Virus record (IMG/VR): IMGVR_UViG_3300036790_000419
Coordinates: 84,914-148,913 of that record
Reading direction: 5' to 3' (one strand)
Source of the DNA: a virus
Length of the DNA: 64,000 bases
Shown: positions 343 through 19,650 of the stretch, in pieces
Numbering within the stretch: the first letter of the stretch is position 1
Layout: each line of letters starts with the position of its first letter
The notes under the pieces: model-generated
Seen by the model: the letters and a program-made list of their open reading frames with translations, nothing else
Database searches by the model: none
What the model was told of the DNA's origin: nothing
Program-made: the position numbers and the translations under genes

Positions 343-525
343 GTGTTCGGCTGGCTGTCCTCGCTGTTCTTCGCCATCGCGTTCATCCTGTACGCGGCCA
401 AGGCCGGCACCTCGCTGCCCTGGACCCCGGAGGGCTTCACGATCCTCGGCCTGCTGTGCCTGGCCCTGCACGTGGCGTTCTGGTGGTACCCGGTCGGCCG
501 CCGCCCCGGGCCGCCGGTCGCGTGA
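343..525 (+). CDS. small two-TM membrane protein
   Basis: Two hydrophobic segments; stop overlaps terL start (GTGA). Confidence 0.7.
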   Translation: MFGWLSSLFFAIAFILYAAKAGTSLPWTPEGFTILGLLCLALHVAFWWYPVGRRPGPPVA

Positions 526-2489
526 CCGCCGCCGGCGCGGCTGCCGCGGCCCTGCTCGGGTCGTCCGGCGGCGCGGGCACGTCCGCTACCGGGCCCGGCA
601 TCTTCGAGGAGGAGCCGGTCCCGCTTGACGTCTTCGTCCGGGACCGGGCCTACCTGGCCAACCCGCCGCTGAGCGAGGTCCAGTACGAGGCGGTCCGGCA
701 CGCTGAGCGGGTCTACTACCTGCCGACCTACGAGCTGCTGGCGGCCAGCGCCGACAAGGAGGTGAGGAACTACTGGTCGCAGCCGACGCGCATGGTCAAC
801 TTCCTGGAGCTGGAGTGGGGGAAGGGCGGGGGCAAGGACCACACCTGCCGGATGATCGCCATGCGGGTCTGCTACCTGCTGCTGTGCCTGAAGTCCCCGC
901 AGGATTACTACCAGATGCCCGAGCAGGATTCGATTCACGTCCTGAATGTCGCATCATCTTCGAAGCAGGCCCAGCGCGCGTTCTTCGCCCCCATGCGCCG
1001 CGCGGTGCAGCGGCCGGGCTGCTGGTTCCAGCGCAAGGCCGGCATCGACATCATCGACGCCGCCGCCCGCCAGCAGCGCGGCGCCCGCGGGGAGCGCACC
1101 GTCACGCTGCTGGACACCATCCGGTTCGAGCACAACATCGAGGCTGTCTCCGGCCACTCCGACGCCGACAGCCAGGAGGGGCTCAACCTCATCCTCGGCA
1201 TCGCCGACGAGATCGACGCGTTCCGCTCGGCCGCGGAGCTGGCTCGCAACGCCTCGGCCAAGCAGCGCGAGTCGTCCTCCTCGGCCGAGGCGATCCTCGA
1301 CATGATCCGGACCAGTGCCACCACCCGGTTCCCGGAGACCTTCAAGAACGTGCACATCTCCTACCCGCGCTACCTGGGCAGCACCATCCAGCAACTGGTC
1401 GCCAAGGGCAAGGCTGACAACGAGGCGCGCGGTGAGCGGAGCCGCTACTACGTGTCCGGCCCGCTGGCTACCTGGGAGGCCAATCCCCGCATCAGCGGGA
1501 AAGAGGCGTTCGCGGAGGACTACGAGAAGGACCCGGCGCTGGCCGAGGCGAAGTACGAGTGCAAGCCGCGCCGCGCGATTAACCCGTACTTCGCCAACGA
1601 GGAGGCCATCCGCGACTGCCTGGTGGAGTACGCCCAGCCGCCGGTGAGCGTGGCCTACGTGCGCGAGGGCGCGACCTGGAGGCCGCTCTACACCTTCAGC
1701 CCCGGGTTCTTCCCGGTCAAGGGTGCCTTGTACGCCATGCACGCTGACCTGGCGGCCACCGGCGACCGGGCCGGCGTGACGATGGCGCACGTCAAGCGCT
1801 GGCAGGACCACGCCCTTGTCGGCTACGACGAGGAAGGCCTGGAGATCAAGGTCCAGGAGCGCCGCCCGGTGGTGAAAGCCGACTTCACCATCAGCTACGA
1901 GGCGGACGCCGGCGCGAGGCCGCCGATGGAGATCCAGATTCGCTGGGCGAGGATGTTGTGCCTTGAGCTGCGCCGGATGGGATTTCCGGTAGTTTTCTTC
2001 TCATTCGATCAGTGGCAGTCAAAAGACTCCATGCAGATCCTGGAATCGCACGGAATAGAGACTGACCGGTTCTCCACCGACGTGTCCGAGGAGGGCTGGC
2101 GGACGCTGCGGGACGTCATGTACGAGGGCCGCCTGGAGATGCCCGCGCGCGAGCTGACCGTCATCGAGCTGCTCGGGCTGTCGCGGCTGCCGAACGGCAA
2201 GATCGACCACCTGGGTGACAGCTCCAAGGACGAGGCCGACTCCCTGGCCGGCGCGGTTTCCGGCGCGCTGAGGACCGGCGGCCAGGAGGACGCGAGCGGC
2301 AAGCGCGCCTACCCCGGCCAGGCCTCGTTCTACGGCCCGGCCGCTGAGATCCCCTCCCCGGCTGGAATGCCCGCGGCGATGTCAGTGCTCGGCCCGGATA
2401 ACTTCATGCCGGCGGACCGCCCCGGCATGGAGTACGGCAGCAGCTACCTGGACGACTGGGGCTCGGCCAGCGGGGACTACCAGCAGTAA
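522..2489 (+). CDS. terL: terminase large subunit
   Basis: Walker A-like WGKGGGKD, Walker B ILGIADEID, RNase H-like MHADLA and KIDH..SKDEADS; GTG at 522 coupled to upstream stop. Confidence 0.9.
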   Translation: MTAAGAAAAALLGSSGGAGTSATGPGIFEEEPVPLDVFVRDRAYLANPPLSEVQYEAVRHAERVYYLPTYELLAASADKEVRNYWSQPTRMVNFLELEWGKGGGKDHTCRMIAMRVCYLLLCLKSPQDYYQMPEQDSIHVLNVASSSKQAQRAFFAPMRRAVQRPGCWFQRKAGIDIIDAAARQQRGARGERTVTLLDTIRFEHNIEAVSGHSDADSQEGLNLILGIADEIDAFRSAAELARNASAKQRESSSSAEAILDMIRTSATTRFPETFKNVHISYPRYLGSTIQQLVAKGKADNEARGERSRYYVSGPLATWEANPRISGKEAFAEDYEKDPALAEAKYECKPRRAINPYFANEEAIRDCLVEYAQPPVSVAYVREGATWRPLYTFSPGFFPVKGALYAMHADLAATGDRAGVTMAHVKRWQDHALVGYDEEGLEIKVQERRPVVKADFTISYEADAGARPPMEIQIRWARMLCLELRRMGFPVVFFSFDQWQSKDSMQILESHGIETDRFSTDVSEEGWRTLRDVMYEGRLEMPARELTVIELLGLSRLPNGKIDHLGDSSKDEADSLAGAVSGALRTGGQEDASGKRAYPGQASFYGPAAEIPSPAGMPAAMSVLGPDNFMPADRPGMEYGSSYLDDWGSASGDYQQ

Positions 2490-2864: not shown

Positions 2865-3142
2865 GTATCCCGTTCGAGGCACTGGTTGAGTACGCGGCCG
2901 GCCTTGCCGAGGAGGACATGGAGGAGGGCCTGGACCAGCTCGCGGCGCGGGCCGGGACCGTGCCCGGGCGGCTGGCCGACGCGATGGTCGCGGCCAGGCT
3001 GGTGCGGCTGAACCCGGCGGAGGTCCGCGCGTCCGTGCACCCGGCGGTCCGCAGGGCGGTGGAGGCCGACCGGGGCGGGGTGGCTAGCGGCGCCGCGGCC
3101 AGCCTCTTTACCCAGCCAGAAATTCCCCTGGATTTAGCTTGA
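2861..3142 (+). CDS. hypothetical protein
   Basis: GC3-rich ORF, GTGA overlap. Confidence 0.6.
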   Translation: MSIPFEALVEYAAGLAEEDMEEGLDQLAARAGTVPGRLADAMVAARLVRLNPAEVRASVHPAVRRAVEADRGGVASGAAASLFTQPEIPLDLA

Positions 3143-3167
3143 CACCAGTCAAGCAGGGTAGTAACGT
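3139..3167 (+). promoter_or_regulatory. housekeeping-sigma promoter upstream of the tRNA array
   Basis: TTGACA-17nt-TAACGT; -35 lies inside palindrome CTTGAC-ACCA-GTCAAG (3138-3153). Confidence 0.75.
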
Positions 3168-3173
3168 AGTAGC

Positions 3174-3426
3174 TACCCGGGATGCGACCCAACCAGCCGC
3201 ACCCGGGGTTCACCGCAAAGAACTGGCGCGGGTTAGGCCCGCTCCGCTACCGTAAGGATCATGATGTCAAGGTCATCGAGTAAGCAGTGGCAGCGAGGGC
3301 ACGAGCCCTTCGCAGCCGCCGTGCTGCCCGAAGACAACTGCATCCCGGCGAACAAGGCGGTCGTTGTGTAGCGGCCAACCTGCACCAGCAGACCGCCTCG
3401 GGAGAAGCCTCCTGAAGGCGGTTTTT
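3174..3426 (+). ncRNA. structured leader RNA (Ms1-like candidate) ending in an intrinsic terminator
   Basis: Closing helix CCGGGATGC(3177-85)/GCATCCCGG(3340-48), internal hairpins, terminator hairpin 3392-3422 plus T-run. Confidence 0.5.
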
Positions 3427-3444
3427 AGTTGGACAACTCAACAT

Positions 3445-3517
3445 AGGGACGTAGTTCAGCGGCCAGAACGGCAGCTTCCAACACTGCGCGCCGGGGGTTC
3501 GAGTCCTCCCGTCCCTG
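3445..3517 (+). tRNA. tRNA-Trp(CCA)
   Basis: Cloverleaf; loop TT-CCA-AC. Confidence 0.85.
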
Positions 3518-3815
3518 CGACCGTCAGCAACGGCGAGAGCCCGCGCAGGCGCATGTCAATGCAGCTTGAGAACTCCACAGCGTGAGCATCAGCGGCGGGC
3601 GCCATCCCGTCGCACATGACTGGCAGCCGGGTGCGCTCACACCGTGCCCGGCTGCCGATCAACGCCCGGTTCACGGCATGCCGTGACGATGGGCAAGCAC
3701 CGTGCCGTCCGCCGGCCTCCGGGCTCGCGTTCCACCGTAGGGGTGTGCGGCCTGGCTCCGGCCAGGTGGCGGCGGTACTTGGTGTCAAGAGTTTTTGCAC
3801 GATATGCAAAGCAAT

Positions 3816-3888
3816 GGGGCCTTAGCTCAGCTGGTAGAGCATCTGCTCGGCAGACAGAAGGTCGGGGGTTCGATCCCCCCAGGCTCCA
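3816..3888 (+). tRNA. tRNA-Ala(GGC), C33
   Basis: G3:U70; loop TC-GGC-AG. Confidence 0.85.
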
Positions 3889-3890
3889 CA

Positions 3891-3961
3891 GCGGCGGGTT
3901 GCCGGTTCGAATCCGGTCCGGTCCACGCATGGGCTGGTAGCTCAAATGGACAGAGTGTCGC
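3891..3961 (+). ncRNA. circularly permuted tRNA-like RNA 1
   Basis: Order: GCGGC, variable loop, T-arm (TTCGAAT), acceptor 3' strand, loop, acceptor 5' strand, D-arm, GTCGC. Confidence 0.75.
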
Positions 3962-3965
3962 ATCT

Positions 3966-4038
3966 GGGGACGTAGCTCAGCTGGTAGAGCAGCCGCCTCG
4001 CAAGCGGCGTGTCGCGGGTTCGATTCCCGCCTTCTCCA
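3966..4038 (+). tRNA. tRNA-Ala(CGC)
   Basis: G3:U70; loop CT-CGC-AA. Confidence 0.9.
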
Positions 4039-4194
4039 CTTAGGGCACTACTGCCGCGCGTCGGCCGGCGCAAGGCGAGAGAGGGCAGCTGACCTCTCTG
4101 GTGCCTTACCGTTCACCCGTGCGGTAAAACCGGGGACCAGCGGAGCCGAATGTCCGGGGCACCGGGCTGAGGGTGGGGTAAGCCTCCGCAACAT

Positions 4195-4272
4195 CGGGGT
4201 GTGGCGCAGCTTGGCTAGCGCGCTACGTTCGGGACGTAGAGGTCGTGAGTTCAAATCTCACCACTCCGACCA
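4195..4272 (+). tRNA. tRNA-Pro(CGG)
   Basis: Cloverleaf, encoded CCA. Confidence 0.92.
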
Positions 4273-4332
4273 GGATCTCAATGGCTCAAGTGAGGCGGCA
4301 GTAAAGGGCCACGCCCTGCCGGAGATCCGTAA

Positions 4333-4404
4333 CGGGATGTAGTTCAGTGGAAGAGCGCCTGGTTTGGGACCAGGATGTCGCGGGTTCGAGCCCTGCCATC
4401 CCGA
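4333..4404 (+). tRNA. tRNA-Pro(TGG)
   Basis: Loop TT-TGG-GA. Confidence 0.9.
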
Positions 4405-4406
4405 CT

Positions 4407-4476
4407 GCTGGTCAGAGCCGCGTGGCGTGCGGGCCCTTAGCGGGGCACTCAGGGTTCGAGTCCCTGCCTGGTCAGC
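4407..4476 (+). ncRNA. tRNA-like RNA with truncated anticodon loop
   Basis: Canonical T-arm CAGGG-TTCGAGT-CCCTG, D-like arm, anticodon arm GCCC-TTAGCG-GGGC. Confidence 0.55.
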
Positions 4477-4553
4477 CGCTCCGGTAATAGGGACGCCAGC
4501 AGCGGACGCGCGCTGGCGGTCGGTGAAACCCCGTTGCGAATCCGGAGCACCCT

Positions 4554-4626
4554 GGGGCCTTAGCTCAGATGGCAGAGCGCCCGGTTGAAACCCGGAAGGT
4601 CGGAGTCTCGGAATCTCCAGGTCCCG
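4554..4626 (+). tRNA. tRNA-Phe(GAA), aberrant T-loop
   Basis: Loop TT-GAA-AC; T-loop CTCGGAA lacks TTC. Confidence 0.75.
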
Positions 4627-4640
4627 CGCAGTAACACAAT

Positions 4641-4713
4641 GGGGATGTGGCCGAACGGTTACAGGCACTTGCCTTCCAAGCAAGCTACGCGGGTTCGACC
4701 CCCGTCATCCCCT
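4641..4713 (+). tRNA. tRNA-Gly(TCC)
   Basis: Loop CT-TCC-AA, U73. Confidence 0.9.
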
Positions 4714-4841
4714 CTGGTACGGGCCGGACTCATACTCCGGTTGCGTGCAAGTAACCGGTCCGCGGCTGTCGGGCTGCGGACCGGGAGCGCCTGGGCTGCC
4801 CGGAGGGGCCGACACCCTCTCCGGGGGCACCAGTACTCAAT

Positions 4842-4913
4842 GCGCCGCGAGCATGTACGGCTATGCAGCGGACTCTTAATCCACGGAACGGGGTTCAAGT
4901 CCCTGGCGGCGCA
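4842..4913 (+). tRNA. tRNA-Lys(CTT)
   Basis: Loop CT-CTT-AA. Confidence 0.8.
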
Positions 4914-4957
4914 CTTCACCTGGCTTCGCCGATTTTCGGCAGAGTTCGGTGTTATTC

Positions 4958-5032
4958 GGGCGAGTAGAGCAACCTGGCAGACCCTCCGCTCCCAAAAAGC
5001 GGGATGTGCGGGTTCGAATCCCGCCTCGCCCA
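4958..5032 (+). tRNA. tRNA-Leu(CAA), C33, short variable loop
   Basis: CCGCT-CC-CAA-AA-AGCGG; 5-nt variable region. Confidence 0.75.
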
Positions 5033-5136
5033 CGCCGGCTGGCAAGGCCGTCCTGCGAATCCTTGCCCGGCCTCTCCTGTGGGGAGAGCAAAGGCCGTTA
5101 CAGGAGGGGGAGAAAAGGCCCCTCCCGTCAATTCAG

Positions 5137-5209
5137 TGGGGTATGGCGCAATTGGCAGCGCAGGTGCGTCTGGTGCACAAGGTTCTAGGTTCGAGTCCTG
5201 GTACCCCAG
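5137..5209 (+). tRNA. tRNA-Gln(CTG)
   Basis: U1-A72; loop GT-CTG-GT. Confidence 0.85.
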
Positions 5210-5212
5210 CGA

Positions 5213-5285
5213 GCTGGAGAATGCGGGTTCGAATCCTGCCCGGCGAGAGAGATCTCGCCGGTGGCTTAATCGGCAAAGCGCCAGC
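5213..5285 (+). ncRNA. circularly permuted tRNA-like RNA 2
   Basis: GCTGG, AGAAT, T-arm GCGGG-TTCGAAT-CCTGC, 9-bp acceptor helix capped by GAGA, D-arm GCTT/AAGC, CCAGC. Confidence 0.8.
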
Positions 5286-5321
5286 AACCCCGGGCACGGA
5301 CGGTATCCCGGCCCGGGGCCC

Positions 5322-5395
5322 GCCCTTGTAGCTCATCTGGCAAGAGCGCCCGCCCCGTAAGCGGAAGGTCCCGCGTTCGACTCGCGGCAAGGGCT
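5322..5395 (+). tRNA. tRNA-Thr(CGT), C33
   Basis: Loop CC-CGT-AA. Confidence 0.85.
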
Positions 5396-5506
5396 CGTAG
5401 TGTCCCGCCGAAGGCGTCACAGGCCCTCATGCCGGCTCCGTTCCAGGTGCCGTGCGGGGTTCGAGTTCTGCTCGTTTCTCCCTCGATCGCGCGTCGCGAT
5501 CATTAT

Positions 5507-5580
5507 GCCCGGATAGCTCAGACGGCGAGAGCGTATCCCCGGTACGGATGAGGCCCCGAGTTCGATTCTCGGTCCGGGCT
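5507..5580 (+). tRNA. tRNA-Thr(GGT), C33
   Basis: Loop CC-GGT-AC. Confidence 0.85.
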
Positions 5581-5591
5581 CGCAAGTTCAC

Positions 5592-5665
5592 GCGGATGTA
5601 GCTCAGTTGGTTAGAGCGTGACGTTGCCAACGTCAAGGTCGCCGGTTCGAGTCCGGTTATCCGCT
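5592..5665 (+). tRNA. tRNA-Gly(GCC)
   Basis: Loop TT-GCC-AA. Confidence 0.92.
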
Positions 5666-5666
5666 C

Positions 5667-5749
5667 GGGTGAGTGGCGTAATGGCAGCCGCGCACGGTTC
5701 AGGCCCGTGTGTCCGCAAGGACGTGAGGGTTCAAGTCCCTCCTCGCCTA
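5667..5749 (+). tRNA. tRNA-Leu(CAG)
   Basis: Long variable arm; loop TT-CAG-GC. Confidence 0.9.
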
Positions 5750-5859
5750 CTTCGAGGTTGTCCACCGTGGCCGCGGGCCGCTGCGCCTGCCGTGCGAGAG
5801 CACGGGTTCCAGGACGGCGGTTAGTTTCCCTGCTAGCGGGAGCGAACGGTGACCTACAC

Positions 5860-5943
5860 GGACGCGTGGCTCAGTGGCTACAGCAGCGCCCTGCTAAGGC
5901 GTACAGGGGTAACCCTGCGGAGGTTCGAGTCCTCCCGCGTCCG
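5860..5943 (+). tRNA. tRNA-Ser(GCT)
   Basis: Long variable arm; G73. Confidence 0.9.
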
Positions 5944-6028
5944 CTTCTGCGCCGGATACCAGCCGAGTCCGTCAGGTGGTGACGCAGGCGCAGTGCCCGT
6001 GGGGGACGGCAACCCGCGACGGGCGCCC

Positions 6029-6116
6029 GGAAGCGTAAGTCGAGCCGGCCTACCGACAGCGGTCCCGAAAACCGTGAGGGGTAACTCCCGTGTGGGTTCG
6101 AGTCCCACCGCTTCCT
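6029..6116 (+). tRNA. tRNA-Ser(CGA), C33
   Basis: Long variable arm; loop CC-CGA-AA. Confidence 0.8.
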
Positions 6117-6283
6117 CCGCACATGATTGAGGCGGCACCCACGGGCCGCTTGCGGGTACCGCCTCAATGTGTAATCAGCCAGGCTGGTGATCCAGTCCAG
6201 AAGGAAGGAACCACGTGCCTTTACGAGCAGCCTAGTTTACTGCTCGCGTTCGCAAGCATACGCACAGTCACAGTGATTGTCGA

Positions 6284-6360
6284 GGGCGGGTAGCTCAGCA
6301 GGTTGGAGCACTTCCCTGATAAGGAAGAGGCCGCTGGTTCGATCCCAGCCTCGCCCACCA
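6284..6360 (+). tRNA. tRNA-Ile(GAT)
   Basis: Cloverleaf, encoded CCA. Confidence 0.92.
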
Positions 6361-6361
6361 C

Positions 6362-6436
6362 GGCGGTATAGCTCAGCCGGTGAGAGCGCCCCGCTCATAA
6401 CGGGAGAGGCCGGGGGTTCGAGCCCCTCTACCGCTA
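6362..6436 (+). tRNA. tRNA-Met(CAT) (elongator Met or Ile2)
   Basis: Loop CT-CAT-AA. Confidence 0.85.
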
Positions 6437-6437
6437 C

Positions 6438-6511
6438 GGGCCGCTAGCTCAACTGCGCAGAGCGGCTGACCTTTAATCAGCGGGTTCGGGGTTCGAGTCC
6501 CCGGCGGCCCA
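6438..6511 (+). tRNA. tRNA-Lys(TTT), C33
   Basis: Loop CC-TTT-AA; D-loop lacks GG. Confidence 0.8.
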
Positions 6512-6519
6512 CTAGCCTG

Positions 6520-6675
6520 GTGCGCGTGAGGAACCTCGCGCTCCGGGCAGCTGAGCGCCTGCACGTCATCTTCGACGCCGTCCCGGTTTACGAGGACGAG
6601 CGGTGGTACAGGTACGGAGACTGGGGCTGCCGGGCGTCCAACTGGGTGCGCCGGCAGCGGAACAAGCGCCGGTAG
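6520..6675 (+). CDS. 51-aa basic protein inside the tRNA array
   Basis: VRVRNLALRAAERLHVIFDAVPVYEDERWYRYGDWGC...KRR; GC3-rich; stop lies inside the next tRNA. Confidence 0.5.
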   Translation: MRVRNLALRAAERLHVIFDAVPVYEDERWYRYGDWGCRASNWVRRQRNKRR

Positions 6676-6742
6676 CTCAGTCGGACAGAGCAGGCGGCTT
6701 CTAACCGCCAGGCCGCGGGTTCGAGCCCCGCCTGGCGCACCA
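6666..6742 (+). tRNA. tRNA-Arg(TCT)
   Basis: Loop CT-TCT-AA; encoded CCA. Confidence 0.9.
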
Positions 6743-6745
6743 CAC

Positions 6746-6818
6746 GGTCCTGTCGTCTAGCGGCCCAGGATGCCTGATTCTCGATCAGGTCGCGCGAGTT
6801 CGAATCTCGCCAGGACCA
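6746..6818 (+). tRNA. tRNA-Glu(CTC)
   Basis: Loop TT-CTC-GA. Confidence 0.9.
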
Positions 6819-6912
6819 CGCAGAGCCTGCTACGCGGGAGACGGCCATTGCCAAAGCAGGTACTCTGAGGTCCGCGCCGGGAGCTGGCTGAAATCCGCTC
6901 GGCAGGACGCAA

Positions 6913-6986
6913 GCCCCTCTCGACTAGCGGTCCAGGTCGCCTGCCTTTCAAGCAGGATGACACCGGTTCGAATCCGGTGGGGGGAA
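6913..6986 (+). tRNA. tRNA-Glu(TTC)
   Basis: Loop CT-TTC-AA. Confidence 0.85.
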
Positions 6987-7017
6987 CGAGGGCCTCCGGG
7001 GTAACCTGGGGGCGCGA

Positions 7018-7095
7018 CGCGGAGTAGGGGAGTTCGGTTGTCCCCGCGGCGCTTTCATAACGCCGAGATCGCGGGTCCGAATCCCGCCTCCGCCA
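7018..7095 (+). tRNA. initiator-like tRNA (CAT) with 9-nt anticodon loop
   Basis: C1:C72 mismatch; CGGCG-CTTTCATAA-CGCCG. Confidence 0.7.
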
Positions 7096-7186
7096 CGAGG
7101 CCCGGCACTGGCGGCCGGCGAAAGCCCCGGGGAATACGTGGCTGGCCCTGCTGGATAAGGGCTAAACAGCCGGGGGCCTCAGTCGA

Positions 7187-7259
7187 TCCGGCGTAGCTCA
7201 ATCGGCAGAGCAGCGTCCCGTTAAGGCGAGGGTTCCCAGTTCGAGTCTGGGCGCCGGAG
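7187..7259 (+). tRNA. tRNA-Asn(GTT), C33
   Basis: Loop CC-GTT-AA. Confidence 0.85.
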
Positions 7260-7364
7260 CGCGTCAGTCTGGGATACGAGGGGCAGCAGCCCTGCCGCGG
7301 CCCGCGCGGCGGTCGCCGAAGCGGGACGAGTGCCGGGGCTCCCCAGTCAGCCGCCGGCACACAT

Positions 7365-7440
7365 GGTCTTGTAGGGGAGCCTGGCCGTCCCCGCCGCCCC
7401 GTCAAGGCGAAGATCGCGGGTTCGAATCCCGCCAGGACCG
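7365..7440 (+). tRNA. tRNA-Asp(GTC), C33
   Basis: Loop CC-GTC-AA; G73. Confidence 0.85.
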
Positions 7441-7464
7441 CTTTCTCACCCGGGGCCGGGGCGT

Positions 7465-7599
7465 TTAGACACCGGAGCGCTTGCGCCGCTCGCCCAGCTC
7501 GGTCCGCCCGAGCCGGTACAGGGCGCGGTAGCCGCCGAGCCTCAGCCCGATCCAGATGCCGGAGCCGAAGGCGATGACCAGGAGGATGAAAATGCCCAC
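7465..7599 (-). CDS. 44-aa single-TM peptide antisense to the tRNA array
   Basis: MGIFILLVIAFGSGIWIGLRLGGYRALYRLGRTELGERRKRSGV; GC3-rich. Confidence 0.6.
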   Translation of the reverse strand: MGIFILLVIAFGSGIWIGLRLGGYRALYRLGRTELGERRKRSGV

Positions 7600-7641
7600 G
7601 TGATTAAACGGTACCTGGTTCTTTACCAGTGTCTAGGCACT

Positions 7642-7716
7642 GCCCCTGTAGCTCAACGGGAGAGCGCCGTCTCGACAAGGCGGAGGGAGGTGGTCCGACA
7701 CCACCTAGGGGCACCA
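7642..7716 (+). tRNA. tRNA-Val(GAC), C33
   Basis: Loop TC-GAC-AA; encoded CCA. Confidence 0.8.
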
Positions 7717-7717
7717 T

Positions 7718-7791
7718 GCACTAGTAGCTCAGCGGACAAGAGCAGCGGCCTACGGAGCCGCGTGGCGGGGGTTCGAGTCCCTCCTAGTGCA
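7718..7791 (+). tRNA. tRNA-Arg(ACG)
   Basis: Loop CT-ACG-GA. Confidence 0.9.
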
Positions 7792-7802
7792 CGCGAGTAC
7801 AA

Positions 7803-7874
7803 GGGCGCATAGCTCAGCGGAAGAGCGCTCGGTTCACACCCGAGAGGCCGGCGGTTCGATCCCTTCTGCGCCCA
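7803..7874 (+). tRNA. tRNA-Val(CAC)
   Basis: Loop TT-CAC-AC. Confidence 0.9.
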
Positions 7875-7875
7875 C

Positions 7876-7950
7876 GGTCGGTATAGCTCAACGGCAGAGC
7901 GCTGGACTGTGGCTCCAGACATACGAGTTCGATTCTCGTTACCAACCCCA
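7876..7950 (+). tRNA. tRNA-His(GTG)
   Basis: G-1/C73; encoded CCA. Confidence 0.9.
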
Positions 7951-7951
7951 T

Positions 7952-8035
7952 GGCGGAGTGACCCGAGATGGCAAGGGGGCCGGCTGTAAACCGGCTGCGC
8001 GAGCATGGCAGGTTCGAGCCCTGCGTCCGTCACCA
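7952..8035 (+). tRNA. tRNA-Tyr(GTA)
   Basis: Long variable arm; encoded CCA. Confidence 0.9.
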
Positions 8036-8036
8036 A

Positions 8037-8110
8037 GGTCTCATAGCTCAGTGGAACAGAGCACCCGCCTCCGGAGCGGGGGGCCGGCGGTTCGAGTCCG
8101 TCTGAGACCA
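8037..8110 (+). tRNA. tRNA-Arg(CCG)
   Basis: Loop CT-CCG-GA. Confidence 0.9.
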
Positions 8111-8198
8111 CGACTGAGTTCACCGCCGTGACCTGGCAGCGGGTAGCGGTGGGCCAGTAAAGCGGGGCGTGCTGCCGGCTACGCCTGCCCCGTCCAAT

Positions 8199-8274
8199 GG
8201 CGGTATGGCCGAGTGGTACAGGCGCACGCCTGCAAAACGTGCTTACCCGGGTCCGATTCCCGGTGCCGCCTCCA
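8199..8274 (+). tRNA. tRNA-Cys(GCA)
   Basis: U73; encoded CCA. Confidence 0.9.
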
Positions 8275-8275
8275 G

Positions 8276-8348
8276 GACCCTGTAGCTCAGCGGACAGAGC
8301 TGCTTCCCCCTAAGGAGCGAGTCGCTGGTTCGAGTCCAGCCAGGGCCG
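8276..8348 (+). tRNA. tRNA-Arg(CCT), C33
   Basis: Loop CC-CCT-AA. Confidence 0.85.
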
Positions 8349-8481
8349 CCTTCGGTGCTCACGCTGTGGCAGCCTGGAGACGGGAGACCGGGTACGGGCT
8401 CGGCTTCGCGGGTCTGAGATCGTTTCCGGTCTCCCGTCACACCAGGGTACATGCACATCACTGCGTTACGCTGGCCCTATT

Positions 8482-9953: not shown

Positions 9954-11552
9954 ATGACTACACCGGGCGGCGGGCAGGGCTCCTACAGCTCCAGCGTGCA
10001 GCCGCCTGGTGGCCTCGGGGTTAGCAGTCAGGGCTACGGCCAGGAGGGCTACGTCCTGCAGGACGAGCAGACGCTTGTCCAGCCGCCCGACGAAGCTCTC
10101 AATTTTGCCACCGGCGTCCCGTACTTCCTCCCCTTCGCCACCCCGTACCGGGACTCGTGGGAGGTCTTCCGCGACGACCCGGTCAGCATCCGCCAGCTGG
10201 TCACCATGCGCCGCCGCGACGGCCAGGCCAGGGCGCTGTACCGGCTGCTGACCAAGCCGCTGCTGAGCGCGATGAAGAACGCCGACGTGGTGCCCGCCGA
10301 CGGGGTGACCGGCGGGGTGGAGGAGGCCCGGTTCTGCAAGGACCTGCTGTTCGCGCCGCGGGCGCAGGGCGGCATGTCTCAGTCGTTTGACAAATTCGTC
10401 AAGCAGATGCTGCTCGCGCTGTTCAACGGGTTCAGCGCCTGGGAGATGGTCTACTGGGTCCCCAAGACCGGGCCGAACAAGGGCAAGTGGACGCTGCGCA
10501 AGATGGACTGGCGCCCTTCGGAGACCCTCACCTTCCTGCTTGACGGCCAGGGCGAGTTCAACGGCTTCCGGCAGCGCACGTTCTTCCAGGGCCGGACGAT
10601 CGACGTCAAGATCGCGAAAGAGACCGCGCTGTACTACGCGCACGAGGAAGCCGAGCGGCCGTTCTACGGCGTGTCCATGTTCGAGAGCGCCTTCTACCAC
10701 TACGACAAGAAGGAGAAGCTCTACTACATCGCTCACCTGGCGGCGCAGCGGGCCGCGGTGGGCCTGCGGGTGGGCACGATGGTGCCGAATGCCCCGGCTG
10801 AGGACAAGAACAACTTCATCCGGGCGCTGGCCCAGCTCGGGCTCGCGCAGTACATCGCGCTGCCCACCGCCGACTGGACGGTGCAGACCCTCAACGAGTC
10901 AGCCAGCCGGTTCGACTTCCTGGGGCTGATCAACCACCACAACAGCCAGATGTCCAAGAGCGTTCTCGCCCAGTGGTTCGACAACGAGCAGGGAGGCGGC
11001 CAGGGGGACAGCACGCTGGTCGACTTCGGCAAGCAGGACGACGTCACCTACTTCCTGATGCTGGAGGGCATCCTGGAGGAGATGGCCGGGATCATCACCG
11101 ACCACATCTTCCCGCGCTTCGTCGACTGGAACTTCGGCTCCGGCAAGTACCCGCAGTTCAAGTGGGGCCCGCTGACCGAGGAGGCCAAGGCCGCCATCCA
11201 GGACACGTTCGACAAGCTGGCCACCGCCGGCCAGCAGGCCAACGTCACGCCGGAGTTCATGCTCGACCTGGAGCAGCGGATGGCCGTCGACTTCGGGTTC
11301 GACATCGACTACGACAAGATCAAGGCGGACCGCGAGAAGCAGCAGAAGCAGATGGCCGCCCAGCAGAAGCAGATGGCCGCCCAGGCCCAGCAGCAGGCGC
11401 AGAACCCGGTCCAGGCCGGGAAGGGCGGGTCCCCCCAGCAGCCGGTGGTGCACATCAAGGTCCCGGTCGGCTCCCAGACTTCCGCCACCGGCACGTCGGC
11501 CTCCGGCGGCAGCGCGGTCGGCCAGCGCAGCGGGAACGGGCTAGACAGGTGA
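9954..11552 (+). CDS. portal protein (Mu gp29/DUF935-like)
   Basis: Position and size; ALFNGFSAWEMVY, ERPFYGVSMFESA, INHHNSQMSKSVLAQ motifs. Confidence 0.85.
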   Translation: MTTPGGGQGSYSSSVQPPGGLGVSSQGYGQEGYVLQDEQTLVQPPDEALNFATGVPYFLPFATPYRDSWEVFRDDPVSIRQLVTMRRRDGQARALYRLLTKPLLSAMKNADVVPADGVTGGVEEARFCKDLLFAPRAQGGMSQSFDKFVKQMLLALFNGFSAWEMVYWVPKTGPNKGKWTLRKMDWRPSETLTFLLDGQGEFNGFRQRTFFQGRTIDVKIAKETALYYAHEEAERPFYGVSMFESAFYHYDKKEKLYYIAHLAAQRAAVGLRVGTMVPNAPAEDKNNFIRALAQLGLAQYIALPTADWTVQTLNESASRFDFLGLINHHNSQMSKSVLAQWFDNEQGGGQGDSTLVDFGKQDDVTYFLMLEGILEEMAGIITDHIFPRFVDWNFGSGKYPQFKWGPLTEEAKAAIQDTFDKLATAGQQANVTPEFMLDLEQRMAVDFGFDIDYDKIKADREKQQKQMAAQQKQMAAQAQQQAQNPVQAGKGGSPQQPVVHIKVPVGSQTSATGTSASGGSAVGQRSGNGLDR

Positions 11553-18079: not shown

Positions 18080-19288
18080 GTGGTCGAGATTCCTGACATA
18101 AGTCTACTCGAACCGGTAGTGCTACGCGGAGTAGTCGAGAAGTTCGTGACTCCGGAGACCCTGCTGCTGCTGAACAGGCTCGACCAGACCCCCTGGCCTT
18201 TCCCCAGCGCCACCTGGGACGTGGTGAAGGGCAGCCGCGCGGTCGCCAAGCCGAACGTGCCCAACAGCGAGGCGCACATCATCTCCCGGCTCGGCCGCAG
18301 CCAGGAGTCCGCGAGCTTCATCTACCTGCGCGAGAAGAAGGTCTTCGAGCCGACCACGCTGCACTGGCTGAGGACGCCGGGCGAGATCGCCCGCATCAAC
18401 GCCGAGCAGGCGGTGCTGCGCGAGATCAACGACCTCAACCAGCGGTTCGACAACTTCGCGGAGTGGAGCTGCTGGCAGGCCCTGGGCGGGGCGATCCAGT
18501 ACAACTACGCGGACATCCAGGCGACGGTCGACTACAAGTTCCCGTCGAGCCACTTCGTAACGCCCGCCGTGCCGTGGGTCACCAACACCGCGCTGGGCTA
18601 CTACACCACCGGCGGCACGTCGGTGAACAGCGGGGCGCCGGGCAGCGCGGCAACGCTCGGCCAGGCCAACACGAACCTGAACACCGGCGGTGCCGGCGGC
18701 ATCACCTACGCCACCCCGGTCGGCATCATCGAGGACGTCCGGTCCTGGAAGAGGCTGCTGCAGGTGCACGGCCGGGTGCCCGCCAAGGAGACCTTCGGTA
18801 CCTCGGTCACCATGGCGGGCCTGATGGAGGCCTGGGTGAGTGCCACGCAGGCCTCCACCGTGTCCATCCCGGCGACCATGCTGTCCGACCGGATGAAGGA
18901 CGAGTACTACTCGACCGGCATCATGACCGGCTTCATGGGCTTGACCTGGACCACGGTGGAGCAGGTCTTCGAGTCTGACCTCGGCAACCTGACGTTCTTC
19001 GTCCCGGACGGCCAGCTCTACATCGGGAACTACACCGACCAGCGGCCGGTGGAGATCCTGGTGGGCCCGACGGCCGATGACGAGGCGCCCCAGGGCTTCA
19101 CCGGCAAGTACGCGAAGACCTGGAAGGAGAAGGACCCGTCGGCCAGGCAGTACCTCCTGGAATGGCACCTCCTGCCGATCGTGACCAGGCCGGAGCAGAT
19201 GCTGGTGGCCACCAACGTCATCTCGGCCGGCGAGGACAACGCCGCGCCCGCGGGCTACTACAACGGCGGCGCCGGGTCGGTCGACTAA
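18080..19288 (+). CDS. major capsid protein (lambda gpE-like, HK97 fold)
   Basis: Size and position; AEWSCWQAL, VDYKFPSSH, KYAKTWKEKDPS..LPIV; true start may be ATT 18089. Confidence 0.85.
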   Translation: MVEIPDISLLEPVVLRGVVEKFVTPETLLLLNRLDQTPWPFPSATWDVVKGSRAVAKPNVPNSEAHIISRLGRSQESASFIYLREKKVFEPTTLHWLRTPGEIARINAEQAVLREINDLNQRFDNFAEWSCWQALGGAIQYNYADIQATVDYKFPSSHFVTPAVPWVTNTALGYYTTGGTSVNSGAPGSAATLGQANTNLNTGGAGGITYATPVGIIEDVRSWKRLLQVHGRVPAKETFGTSVTMAGLMEAWVSATQASTVSIPATMLSDRMKDEYYSTGIMTGFMGLTWTTVEQVFESDLGNLTFFVPDGQLYIGNYTDQRPVEILVGPTADDEAPQGFTGKYAKTWKEKDPSARQYLLEWHLLPIVTRPEQMLVATNVISAGEDNAAPAGYYNGGAGSVD

Positions 19289-19320
19289 GCTGAGGCCAGC
19301 TCTGCCCTAGAGCTGCGGTT

Positions 19321-19360
19321 GCGGAGAGCCCCCGGTAGTAGACGGCCGGGGGCTCTCCGC
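19321..19360 (+). terminator. hairpin after the capsid gene
   Basis: GCGGAGAGCCCCCGG/CCGGGGGCTCTCCGC inverted repeat. Confidence 0.55.
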
Positions 19361-19650
19361 GCCCGGGCGTAGTAGTTACCGTGCCGCGGCACGGGCCCTC
19401 CTCCCCGGACCCGGCACCGGGAATGAGGGAGGGGCGGAGGCAAACTGCTGGCCCGGAACGAGACACGCCGGCCCCGGCCGACGGCGAGGATCTCCGGGCA
19501 GAGCCGCTAGCCGTCCCTCCCGATTTCCGGGTATGCTCCGTGACTGCTAAGGGGATTCACCGTCAGGGCCGCCTTGCCCGCTAAGCCCTGGCCTCGAAGG
19601 GGCCCGGCCCGCAACCGGGCCCCTCTCGTGTTTCCGCCGATTGCCCTCGC

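Follow-up and report, generated by a model that had tools for sequence, protein, structure and literature searches.

Structured, exchangeable RNA modules in the spacers of a phage tRNA array: a candidate expression chassis for small RNA cargo

Phage tRNA clusters have been annotated as tRNAs only. In phage T4, two further RNAs, RNAC and RNAD, are reportedly encoded within the tRNA cluster and excised along with the tRNAs. These species 1 and 2 RNAs are small, of unknown function and were detected as late RNAs (PMC9697503), and the two extra RNAs still have no function assigned. At tRNA islands lie the phage RNAs GOLLD and ROOL, whose kissing loops covary and whose function is unknown (PMC12286853), features shared with RNAs of the locus described here, and theta ribozymes, minimal RNAs of HDV-like type (HDV, hepatitis delta virus), are compact pseudoknotted RNAs located directly 3' of phage tRNAs (PMC10879173), a likeness in position. 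Here we analyse a 64,000-nt stretch (the window; positions 84,914 to 148,913 of IMG/VR record IMGVR_UViG_3300036790_000419), which is part of the 149-kb genome of a tailed soil phage (98% complete, roughly 70% GC). It carries 33 tRNA genes at 3445-8350, placed between the terminase and portal genes, and comparison with related phages suggests with high confidence that most spacers between these tRNAs are selected, folded RNA modules. In the literature that we searched (subscription journals were not covered), no paper was found that describes the spacers of phage tRNAs as drawing on a modular cargo pool.

Portal and terminase searches yielded some 25 distinct related arrays, of which 17 are nearly complete (named below by L numbers where needed); searches for homologues of the array among cultured phages gave tRNA matches only. 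The host would be actinobacterial, because a relative of the terminase large subunit (TerL) with 84% identity lies on a contig of a Streptosporangiaceae metagenome-assembled genome, and because the boxA-like sequence at 3565-3584 is near-identical to the boxA preceding 16S rRNA in genomes of that family. Clustering of 445 distinct spacers gave about 80 module families, of which 8-22 occur in a full array, and the mean Jaccard value between arrays is 0.18. Across relatives a given slot is either vacant or filled, and not always with the same module, and many adjacent tRNAs are separated by spacers of 0-10 nt. Module identity between phages is 75-97%, compared with 53-72% at four-fold sites of TerL. 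These comparisons show that modules are swapped among phages like cassettes while tRNA order stays fixed. Slots of relatives also hold nuclease genes, namely PD-(D/E)XK genes recognised with Pfam (L132:15900-16724 and 19070-19474; L135:15375-15785 and 18509-18880) and an HNH-like open reading frame (ORF) recognised by eye (L044:3500-3938); these genes are possible agents of module exchange.

Spacer folding was compared with shuffled controls and is beyond chance clade-wide. The mean folding z of 183 non-redundant clade spacers is -1.9, with 46% below -2, whereas control 100-mers from the coding region of the window have a mean z of -0.1, with 3% below -2; the window's own spacers average -1.5. 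The original prediction, made from the letters of this stretch, had quoted three pairs of complementary loops, and all are present (4767-4772/4809-4814 in family A, 8135-8140/8171-8176 and 4060-4065/4088-4093), as are the closing helices quoted at 4042/4100, 4273/4322 and 4478/4542. Among four further helices, those of 5763-5851 (6 bp), 5948-5992 (7 bp) and 7099-7179 (7 bp) hold, but that of 7267-7346 has only 5 bp, and this segment folds like its shuffles (z -0.03). Alternatively, the spacers could be neutral or decaying DNA, such as old tRNAs and hairpin-rich passengers, with loop complements arising by chance in 70% GC. The orphan spacers 7263-7352, 4108-4192 and 5397-5506, and possibly 4042-4107 and 4406-4477, would fit such decay. 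For the conserved families it is rejected by covariation, by conservation and by an out-of-sample test, with families A and D clearly refuting it, and as a general account we consider it very improbable. The proposal that the array is a polycistronic noncoding RNA cassette, and not a set of tRNAs with neutral linkers, is well supported at the sequence level by module identity, compensatory changes, bounds at processing sites and RNase P RNA in the slots of relatives.

The ends of the spacers are also informative. A terminal helix was counted as flush when it begins at most 6 nt from the upstream tRNA and ends at most 12 nt from the next. Among 166 spacers, flush closing helices of at least 7 bp occur in 62, against 12.4 expected, and those of at least 8 bp in 44, against 4.8 expected. 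Moreover, the last 5 nt of spacers are AT-rich (0.52 versus 0.34). For tRNAs without an encoded CCA, an RNase Z-type 3' cut together with RNase P cleavage at the next 5' end would release a spacer intact, and CCA is encoded by only 6 of the 31 measurable tRNA genes of the window. We judge that the spacers are probably released as discrete RNAs.

Such ends could also be read in cis only. The modules would then insulate GC-rich tRNAs from misfolding, block exonucleases or order the processing, and be discarded afterwards. Closing helices flush with cut sites and the AT-rich last 5 nt agree with this, and the many spacers of 0-10 nt between tRNAs suggest that any self-folding insert would be tolerated. 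However, insulators need no invariant loops, covarying kiss, anticodon-arm copy or RNase P RNA, and slots are empty in many relatives, so that modules are dispensable for processing. Hence a purely cis role is unlikely in our estimate, and release as separate RNAs is the reading followed below.

Family A has 12 distinct members and occupies the slot between tRNA-Gly(TCC) and tRNA-Lys(CTT). In 11 aligned homologues its 6-bp kiss is paired in 66 of 66 cells, and three of its six pairs have undergone double changes; over the whole structure compensatory changes are found at 7 of 20 pairs, and none of 500 shuffles was as good. The pairing signal collapses once the partners are slid. A covariance model built without the kiss found the twelfth member, in L138, whose loops TGACGG and CCGTCA form a further double change with the kiss kept, and which again has a CAU loop. 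The kissing loop predicted at 4760-4826 is thus borne out by covariation, both at three of six kiss pairs and out of sample, in a form that cannot tell intramolecular from intermolecular pairing. A 16S h18-like motif in family A was rejected, being lost in L138.

Pairing between molecules would lead to oligomers, either cages like those of GOLLD and ROOL or a ring like that of phi29 pRNA. A pRNA-like ring would suit an array lying between terminase and portal genes, and in one of the two subtypes of family A the helix below the first kissing loop is longer by about 11 bp, or one helical turn, so that length changes and phase is kept. In addition, GOLLD and ROOL, which lie near tRNA islands, have intermolecular kissing loops (PMC12286853). 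Nevertheless, at most two families would be concerned, no Rfam match to GOLLD or ROOL was found in the window, and the lack of family A in several arrays argues against an essential packaging RNA. We regard oligomers as distinctly improbable, and take the kiss of family A to be, more plausibly, part of a scaffold.

Loop-loop complements of at least 6 bp occur in 9 of 183 spacers, against 0.7 expected; six of the nine belong to one family, so there are about four independent cases. In family B all 30 cells are paired in five homologues, and the second loop is an invariant island amid variable sequence. The kiss predicted at 8114-8190 is therefore kept in every homologue, but changes are only one-sided between G-C and G-U, with no double change, and covariation is uninformative. 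At 4042-4107 both segments and a stable three-way junction are present; the kiss itself is unproven, as no homologue was found in the spacer comparison or in a pattern scan, and the 7.1 kcal/mol needed to expose the two loops roughly cancels the -7.4 kcal/mol from the kiss duplex, a neutral balance. A second kissing-loop family lies outside the window (L015:1119-1226 and L096:1292-1399); its loops are complementary over 8 bp in L015, and L096 shows what appears to be a compensatory change. The "recurring kissing-loop architecture" of the original prediction was overstated, since it concerns at most 3 of 19 window spacers and one strong family only. The kissing loop is real for one family and plausible for a second, with no general architecture, and it would be a scaffold device of one or two families and no design principle.

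The 5' hairpin of family A, with a 7-nt loop in most members, has the 5-bp stem and 7-nt loop of a real anticodon arm. Compared with tRNA-Met(CAU) anticodon arms of the clade, it agrees at 15-17 of 17 bases in 7 of the 12 members, as against 7 of 149 background hairpins. L136 has a second, initiator-like tRNA-Met, from whose arm the window's copy is one base off, and the arm in L138 is identical to the tRNA-Met arm of L047; other members display GCU, GAU or GAA. Concerning host origin, the family A model, run against 121 genomes from the order, met a single chance match in a GC repeat, a weak test in which only 44 candidates were scored per genome. We draw no evidence from a count of anticodon-like plus T-loop hairpins, because T loops and overlooked tRNAs distorted it.

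Two other window modules are circularly permuted tRNA bodies (3891-3961 and 5213-5285). About 20 similar matches to this pattern were obtained at 13 loci, and in some of them the closed acceptor stem bears inserted cargo. Their order of T arm, acceptor stem and D arm is also that of the YrlA Y RNA (Rfam RF02553; PMC4201824), but their scores of 30 and 25.8 bits lie below its gathering score of 69 bits, and the Ro60-binding motif GNCGAAN0-1G was not found in either. A Ro60 (TROVE) gene had no match in the phage genome, and a host Ro60 is possible. In three relatives (L008:2492-2625, L046:3255-3455 and L047:1482-1622) the acceptor-stem insert of permuted tRNA bodies bears a loop-E (sarcin-ricin-type) motif.

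Five relatives carry a full class A RNase P RNA inside their tRNA arrays, in different slots, with scores of 264-266 bits in L017 and L045, and the L017 copy starts at most 3 nt from the upstream tRNA. Thus phages place their own RNase P RNA within a tRNA operon, an arrangement not met with in any paper of the library searched. This RNA (class A, RF00010) had no match in the window's genome, and it shows what slots can carry, not the identity of the window's modules. In addition, the spacer L017:167-374 holds a copy of 23S rRNA 1051-1089 (uL11/GTPase centre; E 7e-11) with a long insert, in which 13 bases agree exactly with E. coli 16S rRNA 510-522. A small family (L001:7733-7791, L047:7246-7304 and L011:1138-1197) has a weak likeness to 23S 2451-2477 in the peptidyl transferase centre, with a profile E of 0.017 that is not significant over about 80 tests. 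For the window's modules, general rRNA mimicry was rejected because striking short matches failed k-mer and profile tests.

The modules might instead be undescribed ribozymes or ligand-binding aptamers, for example cutters of 3' trailers similar to theta ribozymes. Their site directly 3' of tRNAs is that of theta ribozymes (PMC10879173), the invariant junction nucleotides of family C, family D and the 7097-7180 module resemble tertiary cores, and one true ribozyme, RNase P RNA, is carried by relatives. On the other hand, tRNA was the sole family to reach its Rfam cut-off in the window, no Rfam ribozyme or riboswitch, pistol and hatchet included, matched the window's spacers at E<10, and home-made descriptors (crude, sensitivity not calibrated) found no HDV-like, hammerhead or twister pattern in the array; moreover, most tRNAs are without such a module. 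The ribozymes suggested by the original prediction are accordingly unsupported, and we hold ribozymes or aptamers to be improbable as the main kind of module. Its suggestion of decoys gains support from the tRNA mimicry of the Met arm and the permuted tRNAs, the decoy role itself being evenly balanced.

A promoter-like site of the 3139-3168 type was found upstream of 17 of 19 arrays by pattern search and of an 18th, L001, by leader alignment, and it probably marks the start of the array transcript. The upstream ORF (uORF) at 3261-3371, a putative attenuator leader peptide, has counterparts of 34-38 aa in 16 arrays, ending 63-82 nt before tRNA-Trp. An ORF from the first ATG past the promoter is unconserved and was rejected in favour of the conserved one. 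A consensus terminator scan did not flag the hairpin at 3392-3427. As a whole, 3139-3427 is a candidate translation-coupled attenuator of the entire array. After tRNA-Trp, 3519-3815 is an rrn-like leader with boxB/boxA-like signals and a conserved hairpin with a UUCACAC-type loop, and it also holds further cargo modules, one of them common to L135. Since promoter, uORF and terminator-like hairpin are conserved before the first tRNA and are followed by boxB/boxA-like signals, a single attenuated, rrn-like antiterminated transcript would run from about 3175 to about 8500.

According to our model, the spacers would be freed by host RNase P cleavage at the 5' ends of tRNAs together with an RNase Z-type cut after the mostly CCA-less 3' ends, following established processing rules, as RNAs of 55-120 nt whose ends are often clamped by a terminal helix. 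The processing would fall to the host, because RNase P RNA, ligase and CCA enzyme had no match in the phage genome. Several modules copy translation RNAs, as is partly shown above: in the window the anticodon arm of tRNA-Met, carried by a kissing-loop scaffold, and the elbows of two permuted tRNAs, and in relatives RNase P RNA and the 23S uL11-site copy. Most modules may then work in trans as decoys or mimics, titrating host factors that recognise tRNA or rRNA, such as anticodon nucleases. Anticodon nucleases are an established host defence in actinobacteria and shape actinophage tRNAs (PMC10264068). Decoys or mimics are a fitting role because the tRNA scaffold is fixed, the cargo is rapidly exchanged and the identifiable cargo is of this nature; nevertheless we give about an equal chance that this is the main role of the modules. 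More tentatively, the array could be an RNA-based counter-defence cassette, in which each slot holds an exchangeable decoy (anticodon arm, tRNA elbow or rRNA site) against a particular host RNA-targeting toxin or immune nuclease, is induced via the leader-peptide attenuator when translation fails and turns over like anti-CRISPR genes; this wider possibility is doubtful. The family A module has a nameable mimicry target, the tRNA-Met anticodon arm, and so makes the decoy idea directly testable against tRNA-cleaving toxins.

Several results weigh against this model. Five of the 12 family A loops have drifted away from the Met arm, several window spacers individually fold no better than shuffles (7263-7352 among them), and no homologue was found for 4042-4192, 4406-4477, 4915-4957, 5397-5506 and 7261-7364. 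Concerning rRNA, the best profile match for window families has E 0.23, with none significant, and conserved rRNA k-mers are not in excess over shuffles or antisense. Ro60, RtcB, RNA ligase (PF09414) and CCA-adding enzyme had no match in the phage genome, so that no partner is pointed to. A target can be proposed for few modules, and part of the high identity between modules might stem from recent exchange instead of selection.

Features of the window are collected in Table 1. Outside families A and B, family D has 11 pairs with compensatory double changes, and covariation gives no support to a possible 3-bp pseudoknot in it. The modules at 5755-5856, 5948-6028, 4478-4548 and 4273-4328 show a few compensatory changes each, within 3-4 sequences, and a pattern scan found no additional family C members. 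The original prediction had taken the spacers as a set of noncoding RNAs, which agrees with most of them but not all: 6520-6675 is predicted protein cargo and no RNA module, 7465-7599 is also a small ORF, and 6215-6283 is probably a promoter rather than a folded RNA. At 5397-5506, where most relatives carry tRNA-Leu(GAG), Thr(TGT) and Gln(TTG), the window has none of the three, and the spacer contains a T-loop-like hairpin with no detectable tRNA homology. The ARAGORN call of tRNA-SeC(tca) at 7018-7096 is a second, initiator-like tRNA-Met with an anticodon loop two bases longer; its L001 orthologue has a normal anticodon loop, with C at position 33.

Table 1. Positions of features in the window and of RNase P RNA in related arrays
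Position	Strand	Feature	Remarks
456-2489		TerL gene	
3139-3168	+	Promoter-like site: TTGACA, 18 nt, TANNNT, overlapping inverted repeat	Conserved
3261-3371	+	36-codon uORF with Shine-Dalgarno-like site	Conserved
3392-3427	+	Intrinsic-terminator-like hairpin and U run, directly before first tRNA	Conserved in relatives
3445-8350	+	tRNA array, 33 genes	Gene order largely kept across clade
3565-3584	+	rrn-type boxA-like antitermination sequence, 3' of boxB-like hairpin	Conserved in clade
3891-3961	+	tRNA body lacking an anticodon loop, circularly permuted to the order T arm, closed acceptor stem, D arm	YrlA E 0.0017, 30 bits
4042-4107	+	Orphan three-way junction with possible loop-loop pair 4060-4065/4088-4093	z -2.7
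4273-4328	+	Closed module, 7-bp terminal helix	Homologues in L135 and L130
4406-4477	+	tRNA-shaped element with T loop, without normal anticodon loop	No close homologue; mascRNA E 0.58
4478-4548	+	Family C: closed module, invariant junction sequences, variable hairpin	4 members
4716-4833	+	Family A: tRNA-Met(CAU)-like anticodon arm (4724-4740) on two-hairpin kissing-loop scaffold	
5035-5128	+	Family D: three-hairpin RNA, invariant loops, most widespread cargo module	16 members
5213-5285	+	Second permuted tRNA body, 9-bp acceptor stem capped by GAGA tetraloop	YrlA E 0.027, z -3.1
5755-5856	+	Closed multibranch module	3 members
5948-6028	+	Two-hairpin module	3 members, 5 double changes
6119-6172	+	Long conserved hairpin, apical loop conserved	z -4.3
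6215-6283	+	Promoter-patterned conserved element (-35/-10), weak consensus fold, two conserved hexamer blocks	
6520-6675	+	51-codon ORF in spacer, partial homologues	
6820-6912	+	Module	96% identical in L047
7097-7180	+	Closed multi-helix junction RNA, invariant 7-nt loop	7 members, 4 compensatory pairs
7263-7352	+	Orphan spacer, folding no better than shuffles	
7465-7599	-	44-codon antisense ORF, small hydrophobic (membrane) peptide, apparently leaderless	Conserved in most arrays
8112-8193	+	Family B: two helices and loop-loop pseudoknot 8135-8140/8171-8176	5 members
9954-11552		Portal gene	
L017:1717-2044; L045:3761-4175; L135:16884-17223; L028:3197-3672; L106:2360-2749		RNase P RNA	

Our results can help to place these RNAs among known systems. 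GOLLD and ROOL are many hundreds of nucleotides long and form cages, whereas the window's RNAs have 55-120 nt and no Rfam match. The hallmark of theta ribozymes, a nested double pseudoknot (P3/L3, P1.1 and the catalytic C in J4/2), was not found in the window's spacers; family A instead combines a tRNA anticodon arm with a kiss between two hairpins. Like the species 1 and 2 RNAs of T4, the modules are structured non-tRNA genes inside a tRNA operon, without a promoter or terminator of their own. Whether the tRNA operon doubles, in the manner of those T4 RNAs, as an expression chassis for small RNA cargo is a proposition that we would put midway between doubt and acceptance. Dozens of new families of compact RNAs can be drawn from the clade as a whole, and for these the related arrays themselves supply the comparative evidence. 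T4 RNAC and RNAD, compared here by description, are the closest known kind, and the modules belong neither to GOLLD/ROOL nor to theta ribozymes; T4 has two fixed RNAs, whereas each phage here carries a dozen or more modules from an exchangeable pool of about 80 families.

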